Shown here piece after piece: positions 9,811 to 41,131 of a stretch of DNA of 64,000 nucleotides. A program made the translations under genes and the position numbers. Under the pieces are notes generated by a model. That model made no database searches, had not been told where the DNA came from, and saw only the letters and a list, made by a program, of their open reading frames with translations. The stretch is taken from assembly GCA_964521715.1 (NCBI GenBank), contig CAZFSS010000002.1, forward strand, positions 151,828 through 215,827. Reading direction: 5' to 3'. Positions within the stretch are counted from its first letter, which is position 1; the number at the start of each line of letters is the position of its first letter. The DNA comes from an uncultured candidatus Brocadiaceae bacterium. GTDB lineage: Bacteria > Planctomycetota > Brocadiia > SM23-32.

Positions 9811-11535
9811 ATGAAGACCAGGGCCGTGAATCCGCTCAGCGCGATGGTCCAGCTGATCAAGCCGCACAAGTACCGGGTGCTGGGGGTGCTGGCGTGCCTG
9901 GCGGTGCTGTCGGTCTTCAACCTCGCCCTGCCGATGGTGTTGCGCTTCGTCGTCGACAACGTCTTCAAGGAACCGAAGGAGCCGTCCATCTCCAATGCCG
10001 CCGAACGCCTTGGCATCCTGCCGTACGTCCTCATCATCGTCTTTGTCGTCTACGGGATGCGGAACCTCTTGTTCTACCTGGCCAAGACCCGGGTCATGGT
10101 CGTCGGGGAGAGGACGGCGTTCGAGCTGCGCCAGCGGCTCATCCGCCACCTGCACGCGCTGTCGGTGGACTTCTATCAGCAGAACAAGCCGGGCAAGATA
10201 TCGGCCCGCGTCATGCAGGACGTGCAGGCCATCAAGGAGTTCATCCAGGAAGAGCTGGCCAACTCGATGCTGAACGTCCTGATGCTCGTCGTCGCGTCGG
10301 GCATCATGCTGTACATAGACTGGTTCCTGGCCCTCGTGACGCTGGCCGTGCTCCCCTTCCACGTGCTGGTCTACTACGCCTTCAGGAAGCCGATAGCCAC
10401 CTATGCCCGGCAGGCGAAGGAGCAAACAGCCGACCTGGGCGGCGCCCTGATAGAGCAGTTCGACGGCGCTCCGACCGTCAAGGCCTCCGCCACGCAGCTC
10501 ATCGAACAGGAGAAGATCCGGGAGTCCATGCGCCGGGGCATGCGGGCCCAGATCAAGCAGAGCTGGTACTACGTCCTGCAGAAGGTCGCGGCGGACCTCC
10601 TGGTGGGGATCGGCATCATCATCCTGTACGGCGTCGGCGGATACCTCGTCGTGTCCAGAGGCACGCTGCAGGCGGGGGACTTCGTGGCGTTCTTCCTCTA
10701 CGTGGGGTTGCTCTACCCGCGCCTGCTGGAGCTGGTCGGCCAGGCCGGCAAGTTCGCGCACACCGGCAGCTCGGTCGAACGGGTCTTCGAGATCCTGGGT
10801 ATTGAGCCCAGCGTGCGCGAAAGTCCGAAGGCCCTGCCTCACGAGATCTCCCGCGGCCGGATAGAGTTCCGCAACGTCACCTTCAGCTACGGCAACGGCA
10901 AGGTGCTGGACAACGTCTCGTTCTGCATCGAGCCGCGCGAACACGCCCTCGTCACCGGCCCGAGCGGGTCCGGCAAGAGCACCTGCACGAACCTGATCCC
11001 GCGCTTCTTCGACCCGCAGCAGGGAGCCATACTGATCGACGGCGTGGACGTGCGCGACTTCACCCTCACCTCGCTGAGGCGCCAGATCGGGCTCGTCTTC
11101 CAGGACTGCTTCCTGTTCAACGACACGATCATGGCCAACATCCGCTACGCCGCCCCCGAGGCCAGCGACCAGGCCGTCATCGACGTGGCCCGCCAGGCCT
11201 ATGCGGACGAGTTCATCGAGCGCCTGCCCCACGGCTACATGAGCATCATCGGCGAGGGCGGAATCCAGCTCTCCCAGGGCGAGAAACGGCGCCTGATGAT
11301 CGCCCGCGCCATCCTCAAGAACCCCAGGATACTGATCCTCGACGAGCCGCTCGTCTCGCTCGATCCCATCGCCAGGGAGAGAACCATCGAAGGGCTCGCC
11401 GAGCTGATGAGGAACCGCACCGTGCTGACCATAACCCACTATCCGGCCGAGCTCCCCTATGCCCATAAGCAACTGCACGTCTCCGACGGCGGGGTCACCG
11501 TCAGGGACCTGAGCGGCAAGATCCTGACGTTCTAG
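9811..11535 (+). CDS. ABC transporter ATP-binding/permease protein (type I exporter, MsbA-like)
   Basis: Six-TM N-terminal domain then Walker A (GPSGSGKST), ABC signature (LSQGEKRR) and Walker B (ILILDEP). The 871-aa antisense ORF 9769..12384 is an artefact. Confidence 0.85.
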   Translation: MKTRAVNPLSAMVQLIKPHKYRVLGVLACLAVLSVFNLALPMVLRFVVDNVFKEPKEPSISNAAERLGILPYVLIIVFVVYGMRNLLFYLAKTRVMVVGERTAFELRQRLIRHLHALSVDFYQQNKPGKISARVMQDVQAIKEFIQEELANSMLNVLMLVVASGIMLYIDWFLALVTLAVLPFHVLVYYAFRKPIATYARQAKEQTADLGGALIEQFDGAPTVKASATQLIEQEKIRESMRRGMRAQIKQSWYYVLQKVAADLLVGIGIIILYGVGGYLVVSRGTLQAGDFVAFFLYVGLLYPRLLELVGQAGKFAHTGSSVERVFEILGIEPSVRESPKALPHEISRGRIEFRNVTFSYGNGKVLDNVSFCIEPREHALVTGPSGSGKSTCTNLIPRFFDPQQGAILIDGVDVRDFTLTSLRRQIGLVFQDCFLFNDTIMANIRYAAPEASDQAVIDVARQAYADEFIERLPHGYMSIIGEGGIQLSQGEKRRLMIARAILKNPRILILDEPLVSLDPIARERTIEGLAELMRNRTVLTITHYPAELPYAHKQLHVSDGGVTVRDLSGKILTF

Positions 11536-11598
11536 GCGGGCGCGCAGCACCGAGCTGCGCGCGCCCATCCTCCGCAACCGCAACGGAGGCCGTCCTCG

Positions 11599-12387
11599 AT
11601 GGTGAACCACGCCCCCGAGCGCCCGGCAGCCGACGCGCTCAGGTGCCTCGTCATCATCCCCACGTATAACGAGCGCGAGAACCTGCGGCCCCTCTGCGCG
11701 GCCGTGCTGGCGCAGGGAACCGCCCTCGAAGTGCTCGTCGTGGACGACAACTCGCCCGACGGAACGGGCGACCTGGCCCGCGAACTGGCCGCGCGCGATC
11801 CGCGAGTCCACCTCCTCGAGCGCGAGGGCAAGCTCGGACTCGGCACGGCCCACATCGCCGGCTTCCGGTGGGCGCTGGCCCGGCACTACGAGCGCGTCAT
11901 CACCATGGACGCCGATTTCTCTCACCCGCCGGACCGCATACCGGCGATGCTGGAGGCAAGCCGGCACGCGGACGTCGTCATCGGTTCGCGCTACGTCGAG
12001 GGGGGCGGCCACAAGGACTGGCCCGTGCGCCGGCTCCTGCTCAGCTCCCTGTCCAACGTGGTGGCCCGCCTGGCGCTCCGGCTCGAGCCCGCCGACTGCA
12101 CGGGCGCGTTCCGCTGCTTCCGCCGCCGCGTCCTGGAGCAGATCGCCTTCGAAAACATCGTCGCCGCCGGCTACTCCTTCCAGGAGGAGATGCTGTGGCA
12201 TTGCTCGGGGCGCGGGTTCGCCATCGCAGAGGTGCCGATCGTGTTCGCGGACCGGCAGCGGGGGCGCTCCAAGATATCCTGGCGGGAGGTCTGGGGCGGC
12301 ATCTCGACCGTAATGCGCCTGGCGTTCGCTCCGCCCGGCCGCAAGCGCCCCGCCGGCCCTCCGGAGCCCCGCCGCCGATTGCATTAG
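11599..12387 (+). CDS. Polyprenol-phosphate mannosyltransferase (GT2, Dpm1-like)
   Basis: LVIIPTYNEREN...VVDDNSPDGT...ITMDADFSHPP motifs of the GT2 dolichol-P-mannose synthase family. Confidence 0.8.
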   Translation: MVNHAPERPAADALRCLVIIPTYNERENLRPLCAAVLAQGTALEVLVVDDNSPDGTGDLARELAARDPRVHLLEREGKLGLGTAHIAGFRWALARHYERVITMDADFSHPPDRIPAMLEASRHADVVIGSRYVEGGGHKDWPVRRLLLSSLSNVVARLALRLEPADCTGAFRCFRRRVLEQIAFENIVAAGYSFQEEMLWHCSGRGFAIAEVPIVFADRQRGRSKISWREVWGGISTVMRLAFAPPGRKRPAGPPEPRRRLH

Positions 12388-12405
12388 CCGCGCCGCACAG
12401 GTACC

Positions 12406-13356
12406 ATGTCACCGTCTCGGCGCCCATCGGAGCGATCCTTCTCGGACAGAAAGGAAGCAACATTGAAGACCAGCGGCGCACTCCTGCTGCTTCTCTCCCT
12501 TGCGCTCGCTGCGGCGGGCTGCACGGCTCTTCCGCCGGAGCAGTCGCGGGAGCTTGAAGCCCGCAGACAACAGGCGGCCAACGTGCTGGACACCTTCGCC
12601 GCAGCCATCCGGCAGGACACTCCGGAGGTGGTCGAAGCGCTGCTCGCCCCCGAGCTGTCCGGCGGCATGGCCAGGGAGCTGAGGAAGCGCGCGGAGAGCG
12701 TCGTCTGGCTTCAGCGCTACAGCGGCTACACGCTCGATTCGCAAGGGGCCCTGGATCGCGTGAGCCGCAAGGACTGGCAGCGGGGCGCCTTCCGCGTCGA
12801 AGTGCGCGCCTCCAACGACCAGGGCGAGCGCCTGAGGCACGAGTTCGGGCTGGTCCTGGTCGACGGCCACTGGCGCATCCGCGATTTCAAGCTCACCGAG
12901 CCGGCCCAGGGGGACGCCATCGATCCGCCGGCGGCCGTCAAGGCGGAAGTCATGCCGCAACTGGCCTTCATCCTGGAGAACATGAAAGAGGGACGCATGG
13001 CCGACGTCTTCTACGAGCTGCCGGACAGGGACGTCTGCCGCCGTCGCTCCGTGAAGCTTTCCTGGTGGCAGAAGATCTTCAGCGGCGGCGCCGGGGGCTG
13101 GCTCAGCCTCTATGACGACCTGGAAAGGGCCAAGCAGTTCCACTTCCCCGACTGGCCGGACCCCGACGAAGTCTACGCCTGGGCTTACGCGACGCCGGGC
13201 GGCATCATGGCGGTCTATGAGGTGCCCTACGTCTGGCGCGAGGGAGGCATAGACGAGCCCGACATGCTCAGCATCCGGGTTATCTTCATGAAGACGGACG
13301 ACCGGTGGCGGCTCTACACGCTGCGGCTGATCGGCAAAGGGATCGCCGACGCGTAA
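12406..13356 (+). CDS. Hypothetical lipoprotein
   Basis: N-terminal signal peptide with lipobox (LAAAGC). 316 aa with no recognisable catalytic motifs. The antisense ORF 12409..13143 is rejected. Confidence 0.5.
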   Translation: MSPSRRPSERSFSDRKEATLKTSGALLLLLSLALAAAGCTALPPEQSRELEARRQQAANVLDTFAAAIRQDTPEVVEALLAPELSGGMARELRKRAESVVWLQRYSGYTLDSQGALDRVSRKDWQRGAFRVEVRASNDQGERLRHEFGLVLVDGHWRIRDFKLTEPAQGDAIDPPAAVKAEVMPQLAFILENMKEGRMADVFYELPDRDVCRRRSVKLSWWQKIFSGGAGGWLSLYDDLERAKQFHFPDWPDPDEVYAWAYATPGGIMAVYEVPYVWREGGIDEPDMLSIRVIFMKTDDRWRLYTLRLIGKGIADA

Positions 13357-13401
13357 CGCGCCATCCGCGCCCGGCCCTCAGCGCAGCGGCGCCACCCACC
13401 T

Positions 13402-14406
13402 ATGGGAACCGAGCGGAACGATGCAGAGCGAGCGGCCGAGCTGAGGGTCTGCCCGGACGTGTCGGGGGACGAGCTGCTGAGGTACCTAAGCGTCCGCTTC
13501 GTCACGACGTCCAAGACGGCGCTGCGGCGCCTGATCGCATCGGGCCGGATCCGGGTCGACGGCGGGGCTGCGGAGCCGCGCCGCGTGCTCCGGGCCGGCG
13601 AAGTCATCTCGCTCCCGCCCGAGCTGCGTGCCTCGCCCCTGCCGGAGCAGACCGTCCCCATCAGCGTGCTCTACGAGGATGAAGAGCACCTGTGCGTCGA
13701 CAAGCCCGCGGGCCTTCCGGTGCTGCCGGGCCGCAAGGGAGACGGCGCCGAGTTCCACGAGTCCCTGGTCGCCATGCTCAACCGCAACGCGCCGGACGGC
13801 GGCCCGTACGTGCGCCCCCACCTGGCCCACAGGCTCGACCGCGAGACCTCCGGCGTGCTGCTCGTGGCGAAGTCCGACGGCGCCGGCCGCGCGCTCGGCA
13901 GGCAGTTCGAGCGCCGCCAGGTCGAGAAGACCTACCTCGGCATCATCGAAGGCGTGCTCCCCCGGGCCGAGCTTCGGCTCGACATTCCCCTGCAGCGAAT
14001 GCCCGGCAGCGCGCTGAAGATGCAAGCAGCCCGCCAGGGCGGCAAACCGGCCTCGACCCTGGTCAAGATCGCGGAGCCGTTCGGGCACTTCTCGCTCCTC
14101 GAGATCCGCCCCCTGACCGGCAGGCAGCATCAGATACGCGTGCACCTGGCCGCAGCCGGCCATCCGCTCGCCGTCGACCATCTCTACGGGCGGCGGGACG
14201 AACTGCGCGGAGCGCAGTTCAACGCGATCCTGGGAAGGGCCCGCGCCCGCGCGGATGCGGTCCTGCTCGCCCGCTGCCCCCTGCACGCGGCCTCCGTCAG
14301 GTACCGGCATCCGGGCACGGGCGAGCCGATGGAGCACCGGTCCCCCCTGCCGGCGGACCTGGCGCGGTTCCTTGAGCTTCTGAGGAAGGCCGATCCCCCG
14401 GGCTGA
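13402..14406 (+). CDS. RluA-family pseudouridine synthase (RluD/RluC-like)
   Basis: The catalytic motif HRLDRETSGVLLVAK, the S4-like N-terminal region and conserved GRQHQIRVHL are all RluA-family signatures. Confidence 0.8.
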   Translation: MGTERNDAERAAELRVCPDVSGDELLRYLSVRFVTTSKTALRRLIASGRIRVDGGAAEPRRVLRAGEVISLPPELRASPLPEQTVPISVLYEDEEHLCVDKPAGLPVLPGRKGDGAEFHESLVAMLNRNAPDGGPYVRPHLAHRLDRETSGVLLVAKSDGAGRALGRQFERRQVEKTYLGIIEGVLPRAELRLDIPLQRMPGSALKMQAARQGGKPASTLVKIAEPFGHFSLLEIRPLTGRQHQIRVHLAAAGHPLAVDHLYGRRDELRGAQFNAILGRARARADAVLLARCPLHAASVRYRHPGTGEPMEHRSPLPADLARFLELLRKADPPG

Positions 14407-33016: not shown

Positions 33017-34177
33017 ATGGACGGGCCGACCGGGGGCAGCGCCGTGGAGCGGGGTGGCGTGAGCGCCGGCGACTTCGCCACCGAGGTCCTTGCCGGCCTG
33101 GTCCTGGTGGGCCTGGCTGCAACGCGGCTCCACAACTTCCTGCTCTTCCACAGCCTCGCCGAGATCTTCAGCATCGTCGTCGCGTGCGGCACCTTCATGG
33201 TCGTGTGGAACGCACGCCGGTACGTCGTCAACAACTACGTGATGTTCATCGGCATCGCGCTGTTGTTCGTCGCCCTGGTGGACACGCTCCACATGCTGGC
33301 GTACAAGGGCATGGGGGTGTTCCAGACGCCGGGCAGCAACCTGACCGTCCAGCTCTGGATGGTGGCCCGCTTGCTGCAGGGCGTCTCGTTCCTGCTCGCG
33401 CCCATTTTCATCCGCCGCAGGCTCAGGGCCGTTCCCGTGCTCGTCTTCTACGTCCTGGCCACGTTCCTCCTGCTCGCGTCGGTCTTCTACTGGGACCTGT
33501 TCCCCGTGTGCTACACGGAGGGCGCCGGGCTTACGGCCTTCAAGAAGGCCAGCGAATACGCCGTATGCGCCGTCCTGATCGGCTCGATGTTCCTGCTGCT
33601 GAAGAACCGCCGCTCGTTCGACCGCCACGTGGTGAGCGTGCTGGTCCTGTCCCTGGGGTTCACCATAGCCTCCGAGCTCGCCTTCACGCTGTACGTGGAC
33701 GTCGACAGCCCCGTCAGCATGCTGGGCCACCTGCTGAAGATCGTGGCCTTCTACCTCATTTACAAGGCCGTCATCGAGGCCAGCCTCGTGCGGCCCCACC
33801 GGACCCTATACAGGGAGTTGAAGGAAAGCGAGGAGGCCCTGCGCGCCAGCGAGCTGCGCTTCCGCCGAATGGTCGACGAGAGCCCGGACGGCGTGGTCGT
33901 GGTCAGCCAGGGCGGAATCGTCCGCTACATGAACCCCGCTTCCCAGGCGCTCCTGGGCGCGAAGGCCGACGCGATGATCGGCAAGCCTTTCCAGCACTCA
34001 ATCAAGCCGGGCAAGACGACGCTGCTGAGCATCGCGCCCGTGGAAACGGGCACGGTCACCCTCAGGGCCCGCATGGTCGGGACGCAGTGGGTCGGCGAGC
34101 CGGCCTACCTGCTGACCCTGCACGACATAAGCGACCAGCACCCCGTCGACACGGAGCCGCAGGCCCGGCTGCCGTAG
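33017..34177 (+). CDS. Membrane sensor protein (MASE-like multi-TM N-terminus + PAS domain), no output domain
   Basis: A seven-TM-like N-terminal region is followed by a PAS fold (RFRRMVDESPDGVVVVSQGGIVRYMNPASQALLG). The protein stops straight after the PAS domain, at the island boundary. Confidence 0.6.
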   Translation: MDGPTGGSAVERGGVSAGDFATEVLAGLVLVGLAATRLHNFLLFHSLAEIFSIVVACGTFMVVWNARRYVVNNYVMFIGIALLFVALVDTLHMLAYKGMGVFQTPGSNLTVQLWMVARLLQGVSFLLAPIFIRRRLRAVPVLVFYVLATFLLLASVFYWDLFPVCYTEGAGLTAFKKASEYAVCAVLIGSMFLLLKNRRSFDRHVVSVLVLSLGFTIASELAFTLYVDVDSPVSMLGHLLKIVAFYLIYKAVIEASLVRPHRTLYRELKESEEALRASELRFRRMVDESPDGVVVVSQGGIVRYMNPASQALLGAKADAMIGKPFQHSIKPGKTTLLSIAPVETGTVTLRARMVGTQWVGEPAYLLTLHDISDQHPVDTEPQARLP

Positions 34178-34435
34178 GCGCGGCGCGGTTTCTGAGGGCA
34201 GATGTGGGCCGGGGCAGCGCAAGCGAGAGGATCAACCGAAAGACCAGAAGGCGGGGCAGTCGGACGGCCCGGGAGGCCGAGATCGACGAGCTGGCTGCTG
34301 ACCTCTGGGGCCTGTCGAAGGCGGAGCTGAAGGACATCCAGGATTCCTTGGCGGACCTAATGGAATGAGTGGTTGAGGCGTCGGCGGACATGTCGGGTCA
34401 AGTCACACATCACGGGTGGGTCGAAGGGGAATCCA

Positions 34436-36049
34436 ATGCCGGGTACTAGGCCGTTCGGTACGAAAGACATAGGCGGCGAGCTATTGCCGATCCTCACGCG
34501 GGGCATCTACCGTGACCCGCTGGACACGCTTAGGGAGTACGTCCAGAACTCCATAGATGCTGGCGCTCACCATATCCAGGTCGCGATCACCTCTGACCTC
34601 ATCTCGGTGCGCGACGACGGAGCGGGCATGACGCGACAGGTCGCCGAGCGCGCCATCCGCTTGGGCATGTCCGACAAGGACCCTACTCAGGACGTTGGTT
34701 TCAGGGGCATAGGTGTCTACAGCGCTTTTAACGTATGCCAGAAGCTGGAAATCTACACGCGCCCGCGAGCCGGAGAGCCTTCCAAGTTGGTGTTCGACTT
34801 TGCGAGAACCCGCGAGAAGCTTCAGGACGAAGAGCAGCGCAGGCTGAACGGCAAGCCCTCAGGGCTCGACTTGGTGGCCCTATTGGGCGACTCGGTGTGG
34901 GTCGAGGAGTGCAGCGAGTGCCCAATAGCAGCAAGCGGCACAGTGGTGTTACTGGTAGGCATCCGGGGTGACGTGTACGGCCGACTGACAGACCGAGGGG
35001 CGGTCCGTCAGTATCTGGAGTCAGTTGTACCGCTACCGTTCCCGCCGGCGTTTGCCTATAAGCATCAGATAGAGGCCAGGTTCCGACAGGATGATTACCG
35101 GGTGGTGGACATGGAACTCACCATAGACGGACGGAACGAGGCCATTTGCAGGCCGTACCGGGACTCCATGTTCACACACGGCAAAGGGATTGGGCCGAAG
35201 TTCTACCCTCTGAGCCATGTTCTGGCTCGCGGCAAGCTGGGGTTCGCCTGGGTCTGCCTTAACGACGCACGTAGGTACCTGCCCGACCGGGCATTGCGCG
35301 GCCTTCTGGTCAAGAAGTTCGGCTTCTCTGTTGGTGACAGGGATTACTTCGCCCGCTACTTCTCGCGCCAGGTCTTCAACAACCGTGTGACGGGCGAGAT
35401 CATCGTTACCCGTGACGAGCTCGTTCCGAACGCTGCAAGGTCTGAGTTCGAACCTAGCCCCATCCGAGATGCTCTTTACCTCGCCTTCTCCAACCTGGCG
35501 GCCAAGGTTTCGAGGTGGGCCAACCAGGTTCAAGAGGAACTGAAAGCCAGAGAAGAGCTTCAGGAGATCTCTCCTGAGGTCTTCAGAATCGCCGAAGAAG
35601 TTCCTCTGTCGGAACGGGACGTACCTAAGCTATTGTCTCTGAATAACGTACTCTCCTCCTACGAGAGCAGGCTCAGGACTCACCACGCGAAACTGAAGAA
35701 GATGAACCCAGGGCTGCTCAGGCGGACGCTGACGGCGCTTGCTCAGACCCAGGACACCATCGCCGAGGTGCTAAGCGCTCAACAGCTCGGAGGTGAGGCG
35801 CGCAAAGGGCGGGTAAGACGGGCCGGGAGGCTGCTGGTTACCGCACCATCCGAAGAGGAGCTCGCCCACGCGCGGGAGAAACCCCATACCCTGGTCGACA
35901 TCGTTGGCTATCTCGGCATGGACCTCAGCGCTGACGCCACCCTTCTTCTTGAGTACATCGACAGGGAAGTCCTGCAGCGGAAGCTCTCGCCTGTAGAGTA
36001 CGCCGAGTGCATGGCGGATCTCCTTGCGTTCCTGGAGGAGAGCCTGTGA
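34436..36049 (+). CDS. GHKL-superfamily ATPase (Hsp90/MORC-like, HATPase_c_3) with ~400-aa C-terminal region
   Basis: Bergerat-fold motifs are present: N-box LREYVQNSIDAGA, G1 box ISVRDDGAGM, G2 box VGFRGIGVYSAF (compare Hsp90 IGQFGVGFYSAF). An RBS-like GAAGGGGA precedes the ATG at 34436. The stop is 2 nt before the next gene. Confidence 0.7.
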   Translation: MPGTRPFGTKDIGGELLPILTRGIYRDPLDTLREYVQNSIDAGAHHIQVAITSDLISVRDDGAGMTRQVAERAIRLGMSDKDPTQDVGFRGIGVYSAFNVCQKLEIYTRPRAGEPSKLVFDFARTREKLQDEEQRRLNGKPSGLDLVALLGDSVWVEECSECPIAASGTVVLLVGIRGDVYGRLTDRGAVRQYLESVVPLPFPPAFAYKHQIEARFRQDDYRVVDMELTIDGRNEAICRPYRDSMFTHGKGIGPKFYPLSHVLARGKLGFAWVCLNDARRYLPDRALRGLLVKKFGFSVGDRDYFARYFSRQVFNNRVTGEIIVTRDELVPNAARSEFEPSPIRDALYLAFSNLAAKVSRWANQVQEELKAREELQEISPEVFRIAEEVPLSERDVPKLLSLNNVLSSYESRLRTHHAKLKKMNPGLLRRTLTALAQTQDTIAEVLSAQQLGGEARKGRVRRAGRLLVTAPSEEELAHAREKPHTLVDIVGYLGMDLSADATLLLEYIDREVLQRKLSPVEYAECMADLLAFLEESL

Positions 36050-36050
36050 C

Positions 36051-37010
36051 ATGGCGGCGATGTTCGCGGACCATCCACGAAAGAAGGTAGTGCGCGAGGA
36101 CTGGGATACTCCCGTCCTCAACTTCCTGCACGACAGGTGGAACCACGGATACTTCTACTTTGGGCTGCCGGGGCCACAAGCCTTGGACATCAGGCTGTGG
36201 CGCGAGATGATCCGCCGGGTGGTCGCGTTCGAAATCGAGGAAGCGCACTCCAGAGATCCGAGGAGATCGATTGTCGAGCTCAACAGGCAGTTGGCGCTAC
36301 TTGGGGTGCCGTACTCAGTGTACTGCGGTCCTTTGGAGGAAGTCGTGTTGGGCGGCGTAGACTATGATGGTAGGCAGCTCGAGATCAAGGAGTTTGTTAC
36401 GCTGTTCAACCTGGACTTCTGCAATTCCATCACCGGAGCAGTGCGAACGGCTCATGGCAAGAGATACCTGCGTTTCGAGGCCCTCCGAGAGATCGTGAGC
36501 TTCCAACGACGACTCTACCGTGCTGCAGGGGTCTCCCGGTTTGTGATGCTGGTCACGGTACAGGATGCTTTCCACGTCCGACAGCTTAGGAGCTTCGTGT
36601 CAAACCCCGACCTGCCATCGGAGACAGCCGACTACTTAAGTGAGGTCCTAAGGGACAGAGGTCTACCGGACAAGGCCTTCGCATGCGATACCGCTCTACT
36701 GAAGGCCTTCGTCTTCACGTGTCTCAGAGAGTACCTGAGAGGGCAAAACGCCACTTCAGTCTTTCTGCCGCCCGTCGTCTACTATGGTGCTGCCGGACAT
36801 ACTCAGATGATGCACTTCGTCGTCGTGTGCGCCATGGAGAGGGAGGATACCGCCCTGGTTGAGGATCCCCAGGGGGCGGCGGATTTCCTTGGCATGCAGG
36901 TGTTGCGGGCCGACGAGCGGGATATCAAACCAGAGGCGGCTTGCGGCCCAGTGCGCGCTGTGGTCACTGATAGCGTCTCAGTTGTCAGGAACTACCTCTT
37001 CGATGAGTAG
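36051..37010 (+). CDS. Hypothetical protein, possible divergent Rossmann-fold (methyltransferase-like) protein; middle gene of the island operon
   Basis: 320 aa. A beta1-loop-helix-beta2 pattern (YFYFGLPGPQALDIRLWREMIRRVVAFEIEE) and a later LFNLDFCNS resemble SAM-MTase motifs I/II/IV, but weakly. The start is 2 nt after the upstream stop and the end overlaps the next gene by 8 nt. Confidence 0.55.
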   Translation: MAAMFADHPRKKVVREDWDTPVLNFLHDRWNHGYFYFGLPGPQALDIRLWREMIRRVVAFEIEEAHSRDPRRSIVELNRQLALLGVPYSVYCGPLEEVVLGGVDYDGRQLEIKEFVTLFNLDFCNSITGAVRTAHGKRYLRFEALREIVSFQRRLYRAAGVSRFVMLVTVQDAFHVRQLRSFVSNPDLPSETADYLSEVLRDRGLPDKAFACDTALLKAFVFTCLREYLRGQNATSVFLPPVVYYGAAGHTQMMHFVVVCAMEREDTALVEDPQGAADFLGMQVLRADERDIKPEAACGPVRAVVTDSVSVVRNYLFDE

Positions 37011-38535
37011 AACTGCGAAGCACGTCCAGGCAGTAAGGGGCTTCAGCCGCAGTCGACTCGGCGGGCAGCCTCGCCGTCGGACTGCGCTGCTCATCAACCC
37101 GCCCGTCTACGACACGCAATACTGGGCGCAGTGGAGCCAGCCGTACGGCTTGCTGAGAATCGCCGCACTGCTCAGGAAACACCGCTACAAGCGCATCGAG
37201 CTGTTCGACTTCATGGAAACCGATGGACAGCGAAAGGTCTACCAGCACCGGATCAACCGCGAAGAGGAGTACTCTGAGCGAGACCAGCCCTCCCGCCCTA
37301 CTCAGCCGGTGAAGATCGGCAAGAACGGTGAAGAGCTAAGCCTGTACAAGCAGCACTTCGGCAAGACGTGGGCGGAGTTCGACGAGTGGCTCGACGAGAA
37401 GGGCTTCACCGGCAAGCATCCGCCGCACGAAGTCTGGATCTCCGCCATCATGACTTACTGGTGGGAGAGCGTACGAGACCTGACCGTCCGGTTGCGGCGC
37501 CGGTTCGGCAAGCACACCACGATCCTACTCGGTGGTGTTTACCCAACGCTCTGCCCTCAGCACGCGGCCAGGATGACCGAGGCCGACATCGTGGTCGCAG
37601 GCGAGGTGAAGGAGGCGAACGACCTCTGGACGGACCTGTCCCTCTATGAGACCCCGCCTGACTATGCCATCATCACCCCGACGCGCGGCTGCCCCTACAA
37701 CTGCGGCTATTGCGCTCAGAAGGCCCTGAACCGCGGCCGTCGGAAGCCCTGCCGTCGCGACCCAGACGACCTGCTGGCGGAAATGAAGGACAAGCACGAC
37801 CGCTACGGCATCCGCGAGTTCGCGTTCTACGCCGACTACCTCCTCTTCGACTACGAGCACTGCTTGCTGCCACTGCTCCGGCGCATCGTTGAAGAGGGGT
37901 TGCCGTTCAAGCTGCACGCACCAGAGGGCCTGCACGTGCGCACGCTATGCCAGTCCCAGGAGCTCGTCGACCTGCTGAAGGCCTCTGGCTTCGAGAAGGT
38001 CTACCTGCCCTTCGAGCACATCGACCAAGACTACCTAGCTGCCCTGAACCGGGACCATGTGGGGATTGAACACTTCGTGAAGGCAGTGCGTATGATCGAG
38101 AAAGCGGGGTTCCGCATGCGCAACCTGGAGGTCAACGCCTTCGTTCTGTACGGCCTGCCCCAGGAGAAGATCGACGACGTGGTAAGGAGTGTGCTCTTTG
38201 TCTCAGAGGTGGTGGGCTCGATAATCCCCATGCTATTCACCCCCGTGCCGACGACTCAGGTCTACGAGGACTTTCTGCCATTCATCCGGGAGCGAGGATG
38301 GGATCGGGACCTGCACATGCTGAACGGCAAGCTCTATCCGTTCCTCGAGCTGAACGAAGGCTCCGTGAGCGACTACGTTGACCTCCAACGGCTGATGTAT
38401 ATGCTGAACGCGCACTACCGCAGCGCTTCCTTCCGTCCCTTTGGCAACACTCTAGTGGCCCAAAGCTTCCGAAACAACCTAGCGAACGGATTCAGTGAGC
38501 GCGTCGCTCGGATGGCGGCGGGTGCCGACACGTAA
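37003..38535 (+). CDS. B12-binding domain-containing radical SAM protein (class B radical SAM)
   Basis: The N-terminal LLINPPVYDTQY...LLRIAALLRKHRYKRIELFDF matches the cobalamin-binding domain of class B rSAMs. The canonical CX3CX2C cluster motif (TRGCPYNCGYCAQ) follows at about residue 240. 510 aa. ATG overlaps the end of the upstream gene (GATGAGTAG). Confidence 0.75.
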   Translation: MSRTAKHVQAVRGFSRSRLGGQPRRRTALLINPPVYDTQYWAQWSQPYGLLRIAALLRKHRYKRIELFDFMETDGQRKVYQHRINREEEYSERDQPSRPTQPVKIGKNGEELSLYKQHFGKTWAEFDEWLDEKGFTGKHPPHEVWISAIMTYWWESVRDLTVRLRRRFGKHTTILLGGVYPTLCPQHAARMTEADIVVAGEVKEANDLWTDLSLYETPPDYAIITPTRGCPYNCGYCAQKALNRGRRKPCRRDPDDLLAEMKDKHDRYGIREFAFYADYLLFDYEHCLLPLLRRIVEEGLPFKLHAPEGLHVRTLCQSQELVDLLKASGFEKVYLPFEHIDQDYLAALNRDHVGIEHFVKAVRMIEKAGFRMRNLEVNAFVLYGLPQEKIDDVVRSVLFVSEVVGSIIPMLFTPVPTTQVYEDFLPFIRERGWDRDLHMLNGKLYPFLELNEGSVSDYVDLQRLMYMLNAHYRSASFRPFGNTLVAQSFRNNLANGFSERVARMAAGADT

Positions 38536-38567: not shown

Positions 38568-39221
38568 ATGTTCGCAAGAGTCTGGTTGTCTGCCGTTCTG
38601 GCCCTTTTGCTCGTGCTCGGCGGCGCCGCGCCCGCGGCCCCTCAGCCGGGCCAGCCTCTGCCCCTGCTCGCCCCGCAGACCGAAGGCGGTAAGCCTCTGA
38701 TGCAGGCGCTCAAGGCGCGCCAGTCGTCGCGCTCCTACAGCAGCGAGCCGCTGCCGGCGCAGGTGCTGTCCAACCTTCTCTGGGCCGCCTGCGGCGTGAA
38801 CCGCCCCGAATCCGGAAAGCGCACCGCGCCCACCGCCGTCAACTGGCAGGAGATAGACGTCTACGTCGCCACGGCCGACGGGCTCTACCTGTTCGACGCG
38901 CACGCCCACGCGCTCAACCCAGTGCTGAGCGAGGACATCCGCGCGCTGACCGGCACCCAGCCCTTCGTAGCGCAGGCGCCTGTCAACCTGGTCTACGTGG
39001 CGGACTTCGCGCGCATGGGCCGGGCGTCCCAGGCGGACAGGGATTTCTACTCCGCCACGGACACGGGCTTCATCAGCCAGAACGTCTACCTTTACTGCGC
39101 TTCCGAGGGACTGGCAACCGTGGTCCGGGGCCTGGTTGACCGCCCCGCCCTGGCCAAGCGCATGGGCCTGCGGCCCGACCAGAAGATCATCCTCGCGCAA
39201 TCGGTCGGCTACCCGCAGTAG
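38568..39221 (+). CDS. Nitroreductase family protein with N-terminal signal peptide
   Basis: A signal peptide is followed by nitroreductase-fold motifs (KARQSSRSY...LSNLLWAACGVNRPESGKRTAPTA...). 217 aa. Confidence 0.65.
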   Translation: MFARVWLSAVLALLLVLGGAAPAAPQPGQPLPLLAPQTEGGKPLMQALKARQSSRSYSSEPLPAQVLSNLLWAACGVNRPESGKRTAPTAVNWQEIDVYVATADGLYLFDAHAHALNPVLSEDIRALTGTQPFVAQAPVNLVYVADFARMGRASQADRDFYSATDTGFISQNVYLYCASEGLATVVRGLVDRPALAKRMGLRPDQKIILAQSVGYPQ

Positions 39222-40324: not shown

Positions 40325-40395
40325 GGTCATTGATCGGCGGCCCGGGCGTGCACCCCACAGGACCCGATCCGCCCGGACAATCAGGAGGAAGATCG

Positions 40396-40677
40396 GTGGA
40401 CACCAAGCTGAGAGAGCGCATTGGGCGTGCCGCTCTGGTCCTGAAAGCTGCGGGGGCGAGCGAGGTGTACGTCTTCGGCTCGGCTGCGTCGGGCGAACTG
40501 CGCGAAAGCTCCGACATCGACCTTGCCGTGTCGGGTCTGCCTCCCGAGAAGTTCTTTGTGGCGATGGCCCAGGCGGGGGACGCTCTGGGCCGTGGGCTCG
40601 ATCTCGTCGACCTGGACGAGGAGTGCCCTTTCACCCGCTACCTGAAGGAAGAGGGAGAGCTGCAGCGCGTGGAGTAG
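40396..40677 (+). CDS. Nucleotidyltransferase domain protein (minimal NTase, MNT-type antitoxin-like)
   Basis: The GSAASGELRESSDIDLAV motif is the GS...DxD NTase signature. AGGAGG RBS then GTG at 40396. The track ORF starts earlier, at 40330. Confidence 0.7.
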   Translation: MDTKLRERIGRAALVLKAAGASEVYVFGSAASGELRESSDIDLAVSGLPPEKFFVAMAQAGDALGRGLDLVDLDEECPFTRYLKEEGELQRVE

Positions 40678-40720
40678 GCTTCGGAAGCAGGCGGCGGTTG
40701 AGTGTGAGCAGATCCAGGAG

Positions 40721-41131
40721 TTGCTCGACGTCCATCGTCCCGTGCTGCAGAAGTGCGCCGCTGCTGAACCGGACCCCATCGAGCTCTCCGCGCTCGGCGC
40801 GATGTTGCATGCGTTCTACACTGGCGTCGAGAACATCCTGAAGCGTATCACGGTCGAGCTGGGCGAAGACCTGCCGCGCGGCGAGGCATGGCACCGGCAA
40901 CTGCTGAACGCCATGGCGCGTGCTGGGCGTAGCCGTCCGGCTCTCATTTCCGAATCGCTGCGGGACGCGTTACGTCCCTACCTCGAGTTCCGCCACGTGT
41001 TCCGGCAGGCGTACACATTCCAGCTCAAATGGCCGCGGATGGCCAGGCTCGTCGTCGAGTCCGAGGCCATCTTCAAGCAGTTCGAGAAGGAGCTCGACGC
41101 TTTCCTGGAGGCCGACAAAGGGGCGGGGTAG
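40721..41131 (+). CDS. HEPN-domain protein (HI0074 / NTase substrate-binding-like; toxin-like partner of the MNT)
   Basis: 136-aa helical protein with an R-x6-H HEPN-like motif (RPYLEFRH) and the usual adjacency to a minimal nucleotidyltransferase. Confidence 0.6.
   Translation: MLDVHRPVLQKCAAAEPDPIELSALGAMLHAFYTGVENILKRITVELGEDLPRGEAWHRQLLNAMARAGRSRPALISESLRDALRPYLEFRHVFRQAYTFQLKWPRMARLVVESEAIFKQFEKELDAFLEADKGAG

Follow-up and report, generated by a model that had tools for sequence, protein, structure and literature searches.

Introduction

Prokaryotic MORC and paraMORC proteins are GHKL ATPases of restriction-modification operons, described by Iyer, Abhiman and Aravind in 2008 (PMC2292703), who also proposed a role in controlling the partners for paraMORCs that work with nucleases and helicases in these operons (PMC2292703). 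In this work, we analyse a locus that invites comparison with those systems. It lies in a stretch of 64,000 nucleotides (hereafter, the window) from the genome of an uncultured candidatus Brocadiaceae bacterium (assembly GCA_964521715.1, contig CAZFSS010000002.1, positions 151,828 to 215,827 of the forward strand), and consists of three genes, A, B and C, the first of which encodes a GHKL ATPase with its ATP-binding motifs intact. The reading that we favour, with somewhat more confidence than doubt, is that gene A is a catalytically competent paraMORC-like ATPase, which would serve as the regulatory or mechanical subunit of a mobile cassette, likely a nucleic-acid-directed conflict system.

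The likeness to the paraMORCs is one of both protein and setting. Gene A shares with them an N-terminal GHKL domain with four motifs, a predicted S5/transducer domain and a family-specific C-terminal extension, and its cassette is, as theirs, sporadic, laterally mobile and organised in operons with methyltransferase-type genes. The partners, however, are not the same: the paraMORCs go with SF2 helicases or restriction endonucleases, whereas gene A goes with a B12-domain radical S-adenosylmethionine (SAM) enzyme and an unusual methyltransferase-fold protein. Moreover, the MORC-defining motif GhXhhpXXRhl was not found by eye in the gene A alignment, a reading with no structure-based alignment behind it; the nearest strings, RGLLVKKFGF and GFSVGDR, put the arginine at +6 and not at +8. 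For want of this motif we call gene A paraMORC-like and not MORC, and set it beside paraMORC1-5 by description. To our knowledge, there is no defence or DNA-modification system that combines these parts.

The cassette, of about 4.1 kb, comprises:

34436..36049, + strand: gene A, a 537-aa GHKL (Bergerat-fold) ATPase with a transducer-like domain and a helical C-terminal region (open reading frame, Pfam, AlphaFold2 and Foldseek)
36051..37010, + strand: gene B, a 319-aa protein of the class I (Rossmann) methyltransferase fold (AlphaFold2, Foldseek and invariant columns)
37003..38535, + strand: gene C, a 510-aa radical SAM enzyme with a putative B12-binding domain and the motif CPYNCGYC (Pfam)

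The three genes form an operon headed by gene A, in which a single nucleotide separates the stop codon of A from the start of B, and the ATG of C overlaps the stop of B by 8 nt. The same gene calls recur in independent assemblies.

Gene A retains the four motifs of the Bergerat fold

The 537-aa product of gene A was called by gene callers in four metagenome assemblies. The NCBI gene call, of 521 aa, begins 16 codons late (34436-34483 are skipped) and loses F7, D11 and G13. Since these skipped residues are invariant in the family and the other callers agree, we take the 537-aa start as the real one. The features of its ATP-binding domain are as follows:

34436..35035, + strand: residues 1-200, N-terminal strap and Bergerat ATP-binding domain (secondary structure, model confidence, invariant columns and alignment with the MutL and Hsp90 N-domains)
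34529..34567, + strand: motif I or N-box, LREYVQNSIDAGA, residues 32-44, with E34 as predicted general base, N38 as predicted Mg ligand, and D41
34601..34630, + strand: motif II or G1 box, ISVRDDGAGM, residues 56-65 (D60-x-G62-x-G64)
34694..34729, + strand: motif III or G2 box, VGFRGIGVYSAF, residues 87-98 (G88, G91 and G93)
34937..34942, + strand: motif IV, G168-T169, with T169 kept in 134/146 relatives

An initial annotation of this DNA, made from the letters alone, had reported an intact N-box, G1 and G2. The three strings are present exactly as it quoted them, a fourth motif can be added, and they are essentially invariant in about 145 diverse relatives. Residues 32-127 match the Pfam family HATPase_c_3 (PF13589) with an E-value of 1.3e-13 (51.6 bits for a cut-off of 25), and the ATP lid that joins G1 and G2 (residues 65-88) carries an invariant S79 and K81. 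Profile alignment with MutL (9n2k and 5x9y) sets E34/N38/D41, D60/G62/G64, S79/K81 and G88-F-R-G91 each on a MutL motif, a correspondence that can be followed in the sequences of the Protein Data Bank (PDB) almost letter by letter: LREYiqNaiDA faces vKELVENAIDA, DdGaGM faces DNGEGM, and SeK...GFRGiG faces TSK...GFRGEA. The same PDB-sequence and profile searches align the motifs one-to-one with those of Hsp90 and TRAP1, and the G2 box is in fact a hybrid, made up of a MutL-type GFRG and an Hsp90-type G-I-G-x-YSAF. Such agreement is well beyond a chance resemblance between sequences.

Conservation tells the same story at two depths. Among 59 homologues with 38-68% identity, E34, N38, D41, D60, G64, G88-F-R-G91, G93, Y95 and S96 are all invariant. 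Among 1.84 billion cluster representatives, a profile search gathered 609 relatives of gene A (clusters at 50% identity) at E <= 1e-30, and counts over about 145 of the most diverse relatives and distant paralogues give 92-100% conservation for the catalytic residues, with E34 and N38 in 144/144 each; G62 in 144/145 and G64 in 145/145; K81 and G88 in 146/146 each; and G91 and G93 both in 147/147. D60 is kept in 127/145. All four Bergerat motifs are thus intact and under strong purifying selection. A histidine kinase was also considered and rejected: gene A has a transducer domain and no HisKA/DHp domain, and its HATPase_c_3 match is of the MutL/MORC type.

Predicted fold, transducer finger and C-terminal helices

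The AlphaFold2 model of gene A, built with the family alignment as input, has a predicted local distance difference test score (pLDDT) of 88 and a predicted template modelling score of 0.82. It opens with a low-confidence N-terminal arm (residues 1-27), followed by a Bergerat alpha/beta sandwich (28-200), a second alpha/beta domain (201-341) and a last part made of helices only (342-537). Model confidence is lowest between G1 and G2 (pLDDT 62-74), as expected of a mobile ATP lid. Foldseek searches against the PDB retrieved GRP94, Hsc82, TRAP1, MORC2/3/4 and N-terminal fragments of MutL (E 7e-14 to 1e-11, probability 1.00), through alignments of 360-430 columns that span both the GHKL and the transducer domains. 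Template modelling (TM) scores normalised by target were about 0.5-0.57 against two-domain fragments (MutL N-terminal domain, 333 aa; MORC4, 390 aa; TRAP1, 365 aa). A scan of a viral library returned generic GHKL matches only (Hsp90, topoisomerase II and RIIA).

The Bergerat fold named by the initial annotation is what the model, with its matches to the ATPase modules of Hsp90, MORC and MutL, displays. Gene A belongs to the GHKL superfamily by both sequence and modelled structure, and to its "GHKL + transducer" class (MutL, MORC, Hsp90 and type II topoisomerases), with the transducer assigned by fold only. Catalytic competence, as that annotation had also supposed, is well supported by the four motifs, their conservation and the model, and ATPase activity is a reasonable expectation.

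The domains that follow the ATP-binding core are:

35036..35458, + strand: residues 201-341, transducer-like (S5-like) alpha/beta domain (Foldseek fold match and charge)
35426..35452, + strand: transducer loop PNAARSEFE with R335, predicted gamma-phosphate finger (conservation and MORC-like spacing)
35459..36049, + strand: residues 342-537, all-helical C-terminal region, a presumed dimerisation or partner-binding module (secondary structure and charge)

The second domain is basic throughout the family (mean isoelectric point 9.5, net charge +6.4), and R335, kept in 136/137 relatives with one lysine, is its sole invariant basic residue; K294, R302 and R317 are invariant in the close family and variable more widely. 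In the family the loop reads P331-N-A-A-R335-S-[D/E]-F338-E339, following the pattern P-x3-[KR]-x-[DE]-F-[DE], whose spacing is identical to that of MORC3 (KPTHNKQDFD), MORC4 (KPAYNKQDFE) and MORC2 (EPTHNK427QDF). In the crystal structure of MORC2, the loop's Lys427 coordinates both the gamma-phosphate and the attacking water, and it "completes the functional ATPase" (PMC5811534). On account of the MORC-like spacing and the conservation, we predict R335 to be the transducer finger of gene A, occupying the place of the MORC lysine. An S5-like transducer, raised by the initial annotation as a possibility, is part of the model.

The same annotation had counted roughly 400 residues after the motifs, without recognisable nuclease or helicase motifs. 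The absence of such motifs stands. Around 100 of these residues still belong to the Bergerat domain and about 140 to the transducer, and the last 196 form long helices. This C-terminal region starts with a 50-residue helix (342-392), contains a basic linker (448-475) and finishes in an acidic tail that ends in LEESL, the last 60 residues having an isoelectric point of 4.5. No Pfam, NCBIfam or PADLOC match and no nuclease, helicase or effector family was found by sequence in residues 342-537, whose fold was not searched separately. The helices are less conserved than the rest (majority fraction 0.40-0.48 versus 0.65) and have no catalytic-looking invariant cluster. The novel effector or recognition domain once suggested for the residues after the motifs is not supported, and the appearance of the helices is that of a module for dimerisation or an adaptor. 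The candidates for effector and recognition activities are instead the downstream genes B and C, which that annotation had not linked to gene A.

Genes B and C

Gene B gives a confident AlphaFold2 model (pLDDT 94.6), and Foldseek relates it to NNMT, 2igt, Abd1, GNMT and KsgA with probability 1.00 and E-values near 1e-5, at TM scores of only 0.3-0.5. Its invariant motifs YxGLPG, AFE and NLDFC fall at methyltransferase motifs I, II and IV: G38-L-P-G41 sits at the motif I site, A59-F60-[E/Q/D] comes after strand 2, and N120-L-D-F-C124 lies on strand 4. By its modelled structure, gene B is a protein of the class I methyltransferase fold, with putative SAM binding. No family of the Pfam library used matches it, those of methyltransferases included. 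A faint likeness to PP_RS20740 (27.7 bits for a cut-off of 200) was followed up and abandoned: the match is far below cut-off, and the lead turned up only a paper on furfural tolerance, in which the protein is called hypothetical.

Gene C matches the Pfam family Radical_SAM clearly (E 7e-18, 65.7 bits versus a cut-off of 29.5) and the B12-binding family PF02310 below cut-off (26.9 bits versus 32.1); its homologues carry the NCBI name "B12-binding domain-containing radical SAM protein", and its likeness to class B radical SAM families is only generic. The subfamily is very conserved, with more than 750 matches, of which the top 120 share 61-80% identity. We asked if gene C could have arisen by recombination of the A-B-C type with the type found in methyltransferase cassettes (see below), an idea that was rejected, as identity to the closest homologue is uniform along the whole gene and without a breakpoint. 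Plasmids yielded no close relative of gene C. In PADLOC v2, gene B has no match and gene C reaches merely E 0.005 to PDC-M51A.

A constant partnership across bacteria and archaea

Loci with relatives of gene A came from exact-protein look-ups, from plasmids and from 185,579 species genomes, whose scan gave 79 loci; custom profiles of A, of B and of the radical SAM enzyme were then run over all their open reading frames. Loci were counted as informative if their A-family gene was intact and followed by at least 3 kb of sequence, which left 61 distinct ones. Of these, 57 contain a radical SAM enzyme belonging to a single BLAST-connected family, 49 have B adjacent to A, both partners occur in 45, and not a single locus lacks both (0/61). 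Among close relatives (E < 1e-100), B is found in 30/30 and the radical SAM enzyme in 28/30. The hosts are Planctomycetota, Chloroflexota, Armatimonadota, Acidobacteriota, Bacteroidota, Nitrospirota, Elusimicrobia, Proteobacteria, Thaumarchaeota and Euryarchaeota, a patchy spread of the kind typically shown by cassettes that move laterally. In phage genomes, relatives of gene A are essentially absent, save for one unannotated record of 8.9 kb.

The commonest architecture is that of the window, A-B-radical SAM. Writing A' for a second, distant GHKL paralogue, others are radical SAM-A'-A-B, A-B...radical SAM-A' and radical SAM-radical SAM-A-B, together with pairs of A and a radical SAM enzyme without B in methanogenic and other archaea, and A-B-DGQHR in a Rhizobium, where the third gene has a DGQHR domain. 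A second A-like paralogue is present in 21/61 loci. Such distant GHKL paralogues (~535 aa, E ~1e-36 to the A profile) often stand directly upstream of A, as in L002, L021, L031, L034, L037, L050, L061 and L062, and are sometimes preceded by a radical SAM enzyme of their own; this arrangement suggests two-ATPase, heterodimer-like versions of the system.

Some less usual loci deserve a separate description. In a distant branch (L043, L046, L054, L055, L057 and L085), B is followed by a ~250-aa protein with DUF5131, a relative of "radical SAM mobile pair protein A", and most of these loci have a tandem of two B12-type radical SAM genes upstream of A. Two conjugative plasmids, pR132505 of R. leguminosarum (L087) and pNL1 of N. 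aromaticivorans (L088), carry a cassette of a DpdB-like DGQHR gene, a radical SAM gene and A', which adjoins a pair formed by a divergent GHKL protein and a PIN_8 nuclease; upstream in L087 there are genes for a ParB-like protein and for a DEAD helicase. Finally, L005 contains three different HATPase_c_3 systems within 17 kb: an A gene with a frame-broken B beside an insertion sequence (IS) element, a 573-aa GHKL protein with a PP_RS20740-like protein and a DUF87 ATPase, and a 434-aa GHKL protein with radical SAM-like genes.

A methyltransferase remnant and a shared radical SAM module

The DNA just upstream of gene A contains a gene remnant and a sensor gene that is probably truncated:

34273..34368, + strand: remnant of an Eco57I/PglX-like N6-methyltransferase, its last 31 codons, EAEIDELAADLWGLSKAELKDIQDSLADLME and the stop
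33017-34177, + strand: MASE3 and PAS sensor of 386 aa, which ends within PAS and has no output domain

Over 29 aa, the remnant is 76% identical (E 1e-11) to the C-termini of the methyltransferases of L095 and L098. The full gene would be of about 1000 aa, and the rest of it is gone. In L095 and L098, these methyltransferases precede a radical SAM enzyme of the same subfamily as gene C. From the remnant upstream of A, we infer that the locus was rebuilt, with an A-B pair placed where a methyltransferase once preceded the radical SAM enzyme. The MASE3-PAS sensor probably lost its end in the rebuilding of the island. In Neomoorella glycerini (L095), a full MASE3-PAS-HisKA kinase (10791-13640) is encoded 2 kb away from the gene of the homologous radical SAM enzyme, which may be a coincidence. 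The GC content is 0.58-0.59 over the cassette and ~0.68 around it.

Loci L095 (N. glycerini, CP046244), L098 and L100 represent a second type of cassette, in which members of the gene C subfamily (70-80% identity) are found. Its order is a protein of ~375 aa of no assigned kind, another such protein of ~590 aa with a faint HerA likeness, the N6-methyltransferase, the radical SAM enzyme and a further unassigned protein of ~250 aa. The methyltransferase has 900-1100 aa and resembles Eco57I, MmeI, PglX and MAD2, and sometimes a DUF3800 or a 445-aa protein comes before the radical SAM gene. The closest complete relative of the window cassette (L099; A 68%, B 61% and C 72% identity) is an A-B-C cassette that adjoins a housekeeping gene. 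Upstream of its A gene there is a 70-aa HATPase_c_3 fragment (1349-1561), another sign of the turnover of GHKL genes at such loci. The radical SAM enzyme behaves as a conserved catalytic module common to several DNA-methyltransferase, DGQHR and GHKL systems, and A and B evolve faster than it does.

Genomic neighbourhood

Downstream of the cassette, the window contains:

38568-39221, + strand: nitroreductase-family protein with a signal-peptide-like N-terminus, directly after gene C
40330-41131, + strand: toxin-antitoxin pair of MNT (nucleotidyltransferase) and HepT-like proteins, 1.8 kb downstream of the cassette

The nitroreductase also follows gene C in the other assemblies of the same genome (L089-L092) and does not in related cassettes; it is probably unrelated to the cassette. 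At the borders of the island, no flanking direct or inverted repeats were found, and a scan for promoters and terminators told little, the DNA being high in GC.

Comparison with other known systems

Of the characterised GHKL ATPases, MutL offers the best match to the ATP domain at the level of sequence (E-x3-N-x2-D, DxGxG, the S-K lid motif and GFRG), and the two-domain fold of its N-terminal part is shared (TM 0.56). Gene A, in contrast, has no MutL C-terminal dimerisation or endonuclease domain, and its gene context is different. It was rejected as a MutL, since the MutL models score at most 35 bits for cut-offs of 180-937, the best of them (35 versus 180) over residues 28-111 only. Hsp90, HtpG, TRAP1 and GRP94 are the top Foldseek matches and share with gene A the N-terminal helix, the G-I-G-x-YSAF of the G2 box and arginine as the finger, which in gene A is predicted, whereas the lid of gene A is much shorter and there is no Hsp90 C-terminal domain; the constitutive helical C-terminal region of Hsp90 is an analogy to that of gene A, with no homology implied. 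An assignment to HtpG or Hsp90 was likewise discarded (15.8 bits versus 371, and 20.8 versus 455), the likeness being structural only. The predicted finger of gene A is placed as in MutL and MORC, where the second domain ends, and not as in Hsp90, where it starts. MORC2/3/4 share the loop spacing, with a lysine finger where gene A has an arginine.

Among described defence systems, MzaB (MZA), TmtA (Tiamat) and the BbrUII/HgiDII restriction enzymes match the first 110-135 residues of gene A weakly (E 2.5e-7 to 3e-10). They share a defence-island setting with it and differ from it in architecture and partner genes. A MzaB, TmtA or BbrUII-type identity was discarded, as the match covers the ATP-binding core only, with 39 bits versus 550 and 26 versus 850. 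On the side of the radical SAM enzyme, prokaryotic viperins and the Dnd/Dpd systems with DGQHR proteins resemble the cassette in having a radical SAM enzyme as the catalytic part of a mobile gene set of conflict type, and distant members of the gene A family are linked to DGQHR proteins, which are DndB/DpdB-like. Gene C differs from viperin by its putative B12-binding-type N-domain, which is class B-like, and the cassette differs from the Dnd and Dpd systems by having no TGT, Dnd or Dpd core genes.

Proposed mechanism and alternative explanations

By the mechanism established for GHKL ATPases (MutL, GyrB, Hsp90 and MORC), ATP would bind in the Bergerat pocket formed by E34, N38, D60, G62/G64, G88-G93 and T169, upon which the N-terminal strap and the lid (65-88, which includes S79 and K81) would close, and the N-domains would dimerise. 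R335 of the basic transducer would then sense or stabilise the gamma-phosphate, completing the active site. The helical C-terminal region may hold the dimer, dock the partners, or both, and the basic surface of the transducer could line a nucleic-acid-binding cavity. In this way, gene A would couple the recognition or clamping of a target to its radical SAM partner and, as an ATP-driven clamp or switch, license the activity of the latter, much as was proposed for the paraMORCs (PMC2292703). The enzymatic partners would be B and above all C, in a system acting on nucleic acid, presumably DNA, in a defence or restriction-modification-like role.

We deduce a role in conflict from the context, which includes restriction-modification genes, toxin-antitoxins, DGQHR proteins, PIN nucleases, conjugative plasmids and methyltransferase cassettes with the remnant of one of them, as well as from the GC dip and the basic domain. 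The loci look like defence islands and the cargo of conjugative plasmids. A more far-reaching version, which we put forward only tentatively, is that A-B-C constitutes an unrecognised class of conflict systems, in which a MORC-like clamp would entrap nucleic acid and license radical chemistry, be it the modification of DNA or RNA or the production of a nucleotide effector, and in which the radical SAM enzymes would be exchangeable modules shared with PglX-type and DGQHR cassettes.

Several observations weigh against a nucleic-acid-directed conflict system. No nuclease, helicase or recognisable DNA-binding domain occurs in A, B or C, and the transducer-domain profile, searched by itself against PDB sequences, has no sequence-level match to solved structures. 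The geometry by which R335 would reach ATP derives from motif spacing alone. The neighbours seen in the inspected loci were type I restriction-modification genes, an N6_N4 methyltransferase with UvrD, ParE-like proteins, DUF2442/DUF4160, HNH, IS transposases and DUF5131, and such defence-type neighbours come from about 8 loci, an anecdotal and not a statistical sample. Some members of the gene C subfamily occur by themselves, with ordinary metabolic genes as neighbours. PADLOC v2 does not include the cassette; in it, gene A finds only partial N-terminal matches to TmtA and MzaB and its relatives likewise nothing, and no description of a GHKL-radical SAM cassette appeared in the literature searched; a defence role is for this reason argued from context alone. 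Lastly, the constant pairing of A with a radical SAM enzyme would fit a chaperone equally well.

That chaperone is the best surviving of the alternatives, although we consider it unlikely. Gene A would be an Hsp90-like chaperone, maturase or reactivase for a B12/Fe-S radical SAM enzyme, using ATP for loading or exchanging the cofactor or for opening the enzyme, and would have no direct role on nucleic acids. An analogy is offered by the ATP-dependent reactivases that serve the diol and glycerol dehydratases of B12 type. No partner of A is more constant than the radical SAM enzyme, the archaeal pairs without B included, Hsp90-family chaperones head the structural matches, the N-terminal helix ELLPILTRGIYRDPLDTLREYVQNSIDA aligns with a segment of Hsp90/TRAP1, and the A paralogues weakly match the NCBIfam "HSP90 family protein". 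A dedicated chaperone, however, sits poorly with A-like paralogues that pair with a PIN_8 nuclease in place of the radical SAM enzyme, and with the same radical SAM subfamily occurring without A, in methyltransferase cassettes and alone. Moreover, both the S-x-K motif of the lid and the loop of the finger resemble those of MORC/MutL, the middle domain has a strongly basic character, and HtpG models stay at 16 bits for a cut-off of 371.

A housekeeping or biosynthetic module, for instance for post-translational, cofactor or lipid methylation, with A as an assembly ATPase and no role in conflict, seems to us improbable. Most B12-radical SAM enzymes are biosynthetic, and the best NCBIfam likenesses here are P-methyltransferases, BchE and lipid enzymes, but all NCBIfam scores fall 5-10 times below their cut-offs. 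There are members in archaeal methanogens, and some radical SAM homologues adjoin genes for electron transfer flavoprotein (ETF) and ferredoxin oxidoreductase, yet no biosynthetic neighbours are conserved, whereas restriction-modification, toxin-antitoxin, DGQHR, PIN nuclease and plasmid genes come up repeatedly. The patchy distribution among phyla, the GC dip and the insertion beside a gene remnant also speak against such a module, as does the small size of the family, with 609 clusters at 50% identity among 1.84 billion.

That gene A binds ATP without hydrolysing it, as a pseudo-enzyme or nucleotide sensor, or that its motif match is superficial, is a very remote prospect: it could appeal to the tyrosine at G93+2, where MORC2 has a lysine contacting the alpha-phosphate (PMC5811534), and to a finger of arginine rather than lysine. 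However, E34, N38, all glycines, T169 and R335 are 92-100% conserved in a very divergent family, which would be unexpected for a non-catalytic scaffold. Hsp90, too, uses an arginine and the sequence G-x-G-F-Y-S.

Significance

An intact GHKL ATPase is ordinary by itself, and the point of interest is its partnership: about 600 clusters (50% identity) of MORC/MutL/Hsp90-like ATPases are almost obligatorily tied to B12-domain radical SAM enzymes of one family and to a divergent protein of methyltransferase fold. The cassette is an undescribed variant of the paraMORC theme, horizontally mobile and probably directed at DNA. If it does act on nucleic acids, it would extend radical SAM chemistry in prokaryotic immunity or epigenetics beyond the viperins, and it would offer a bacterial model for the control of a catalytic partner by a MORC-type ATPase.

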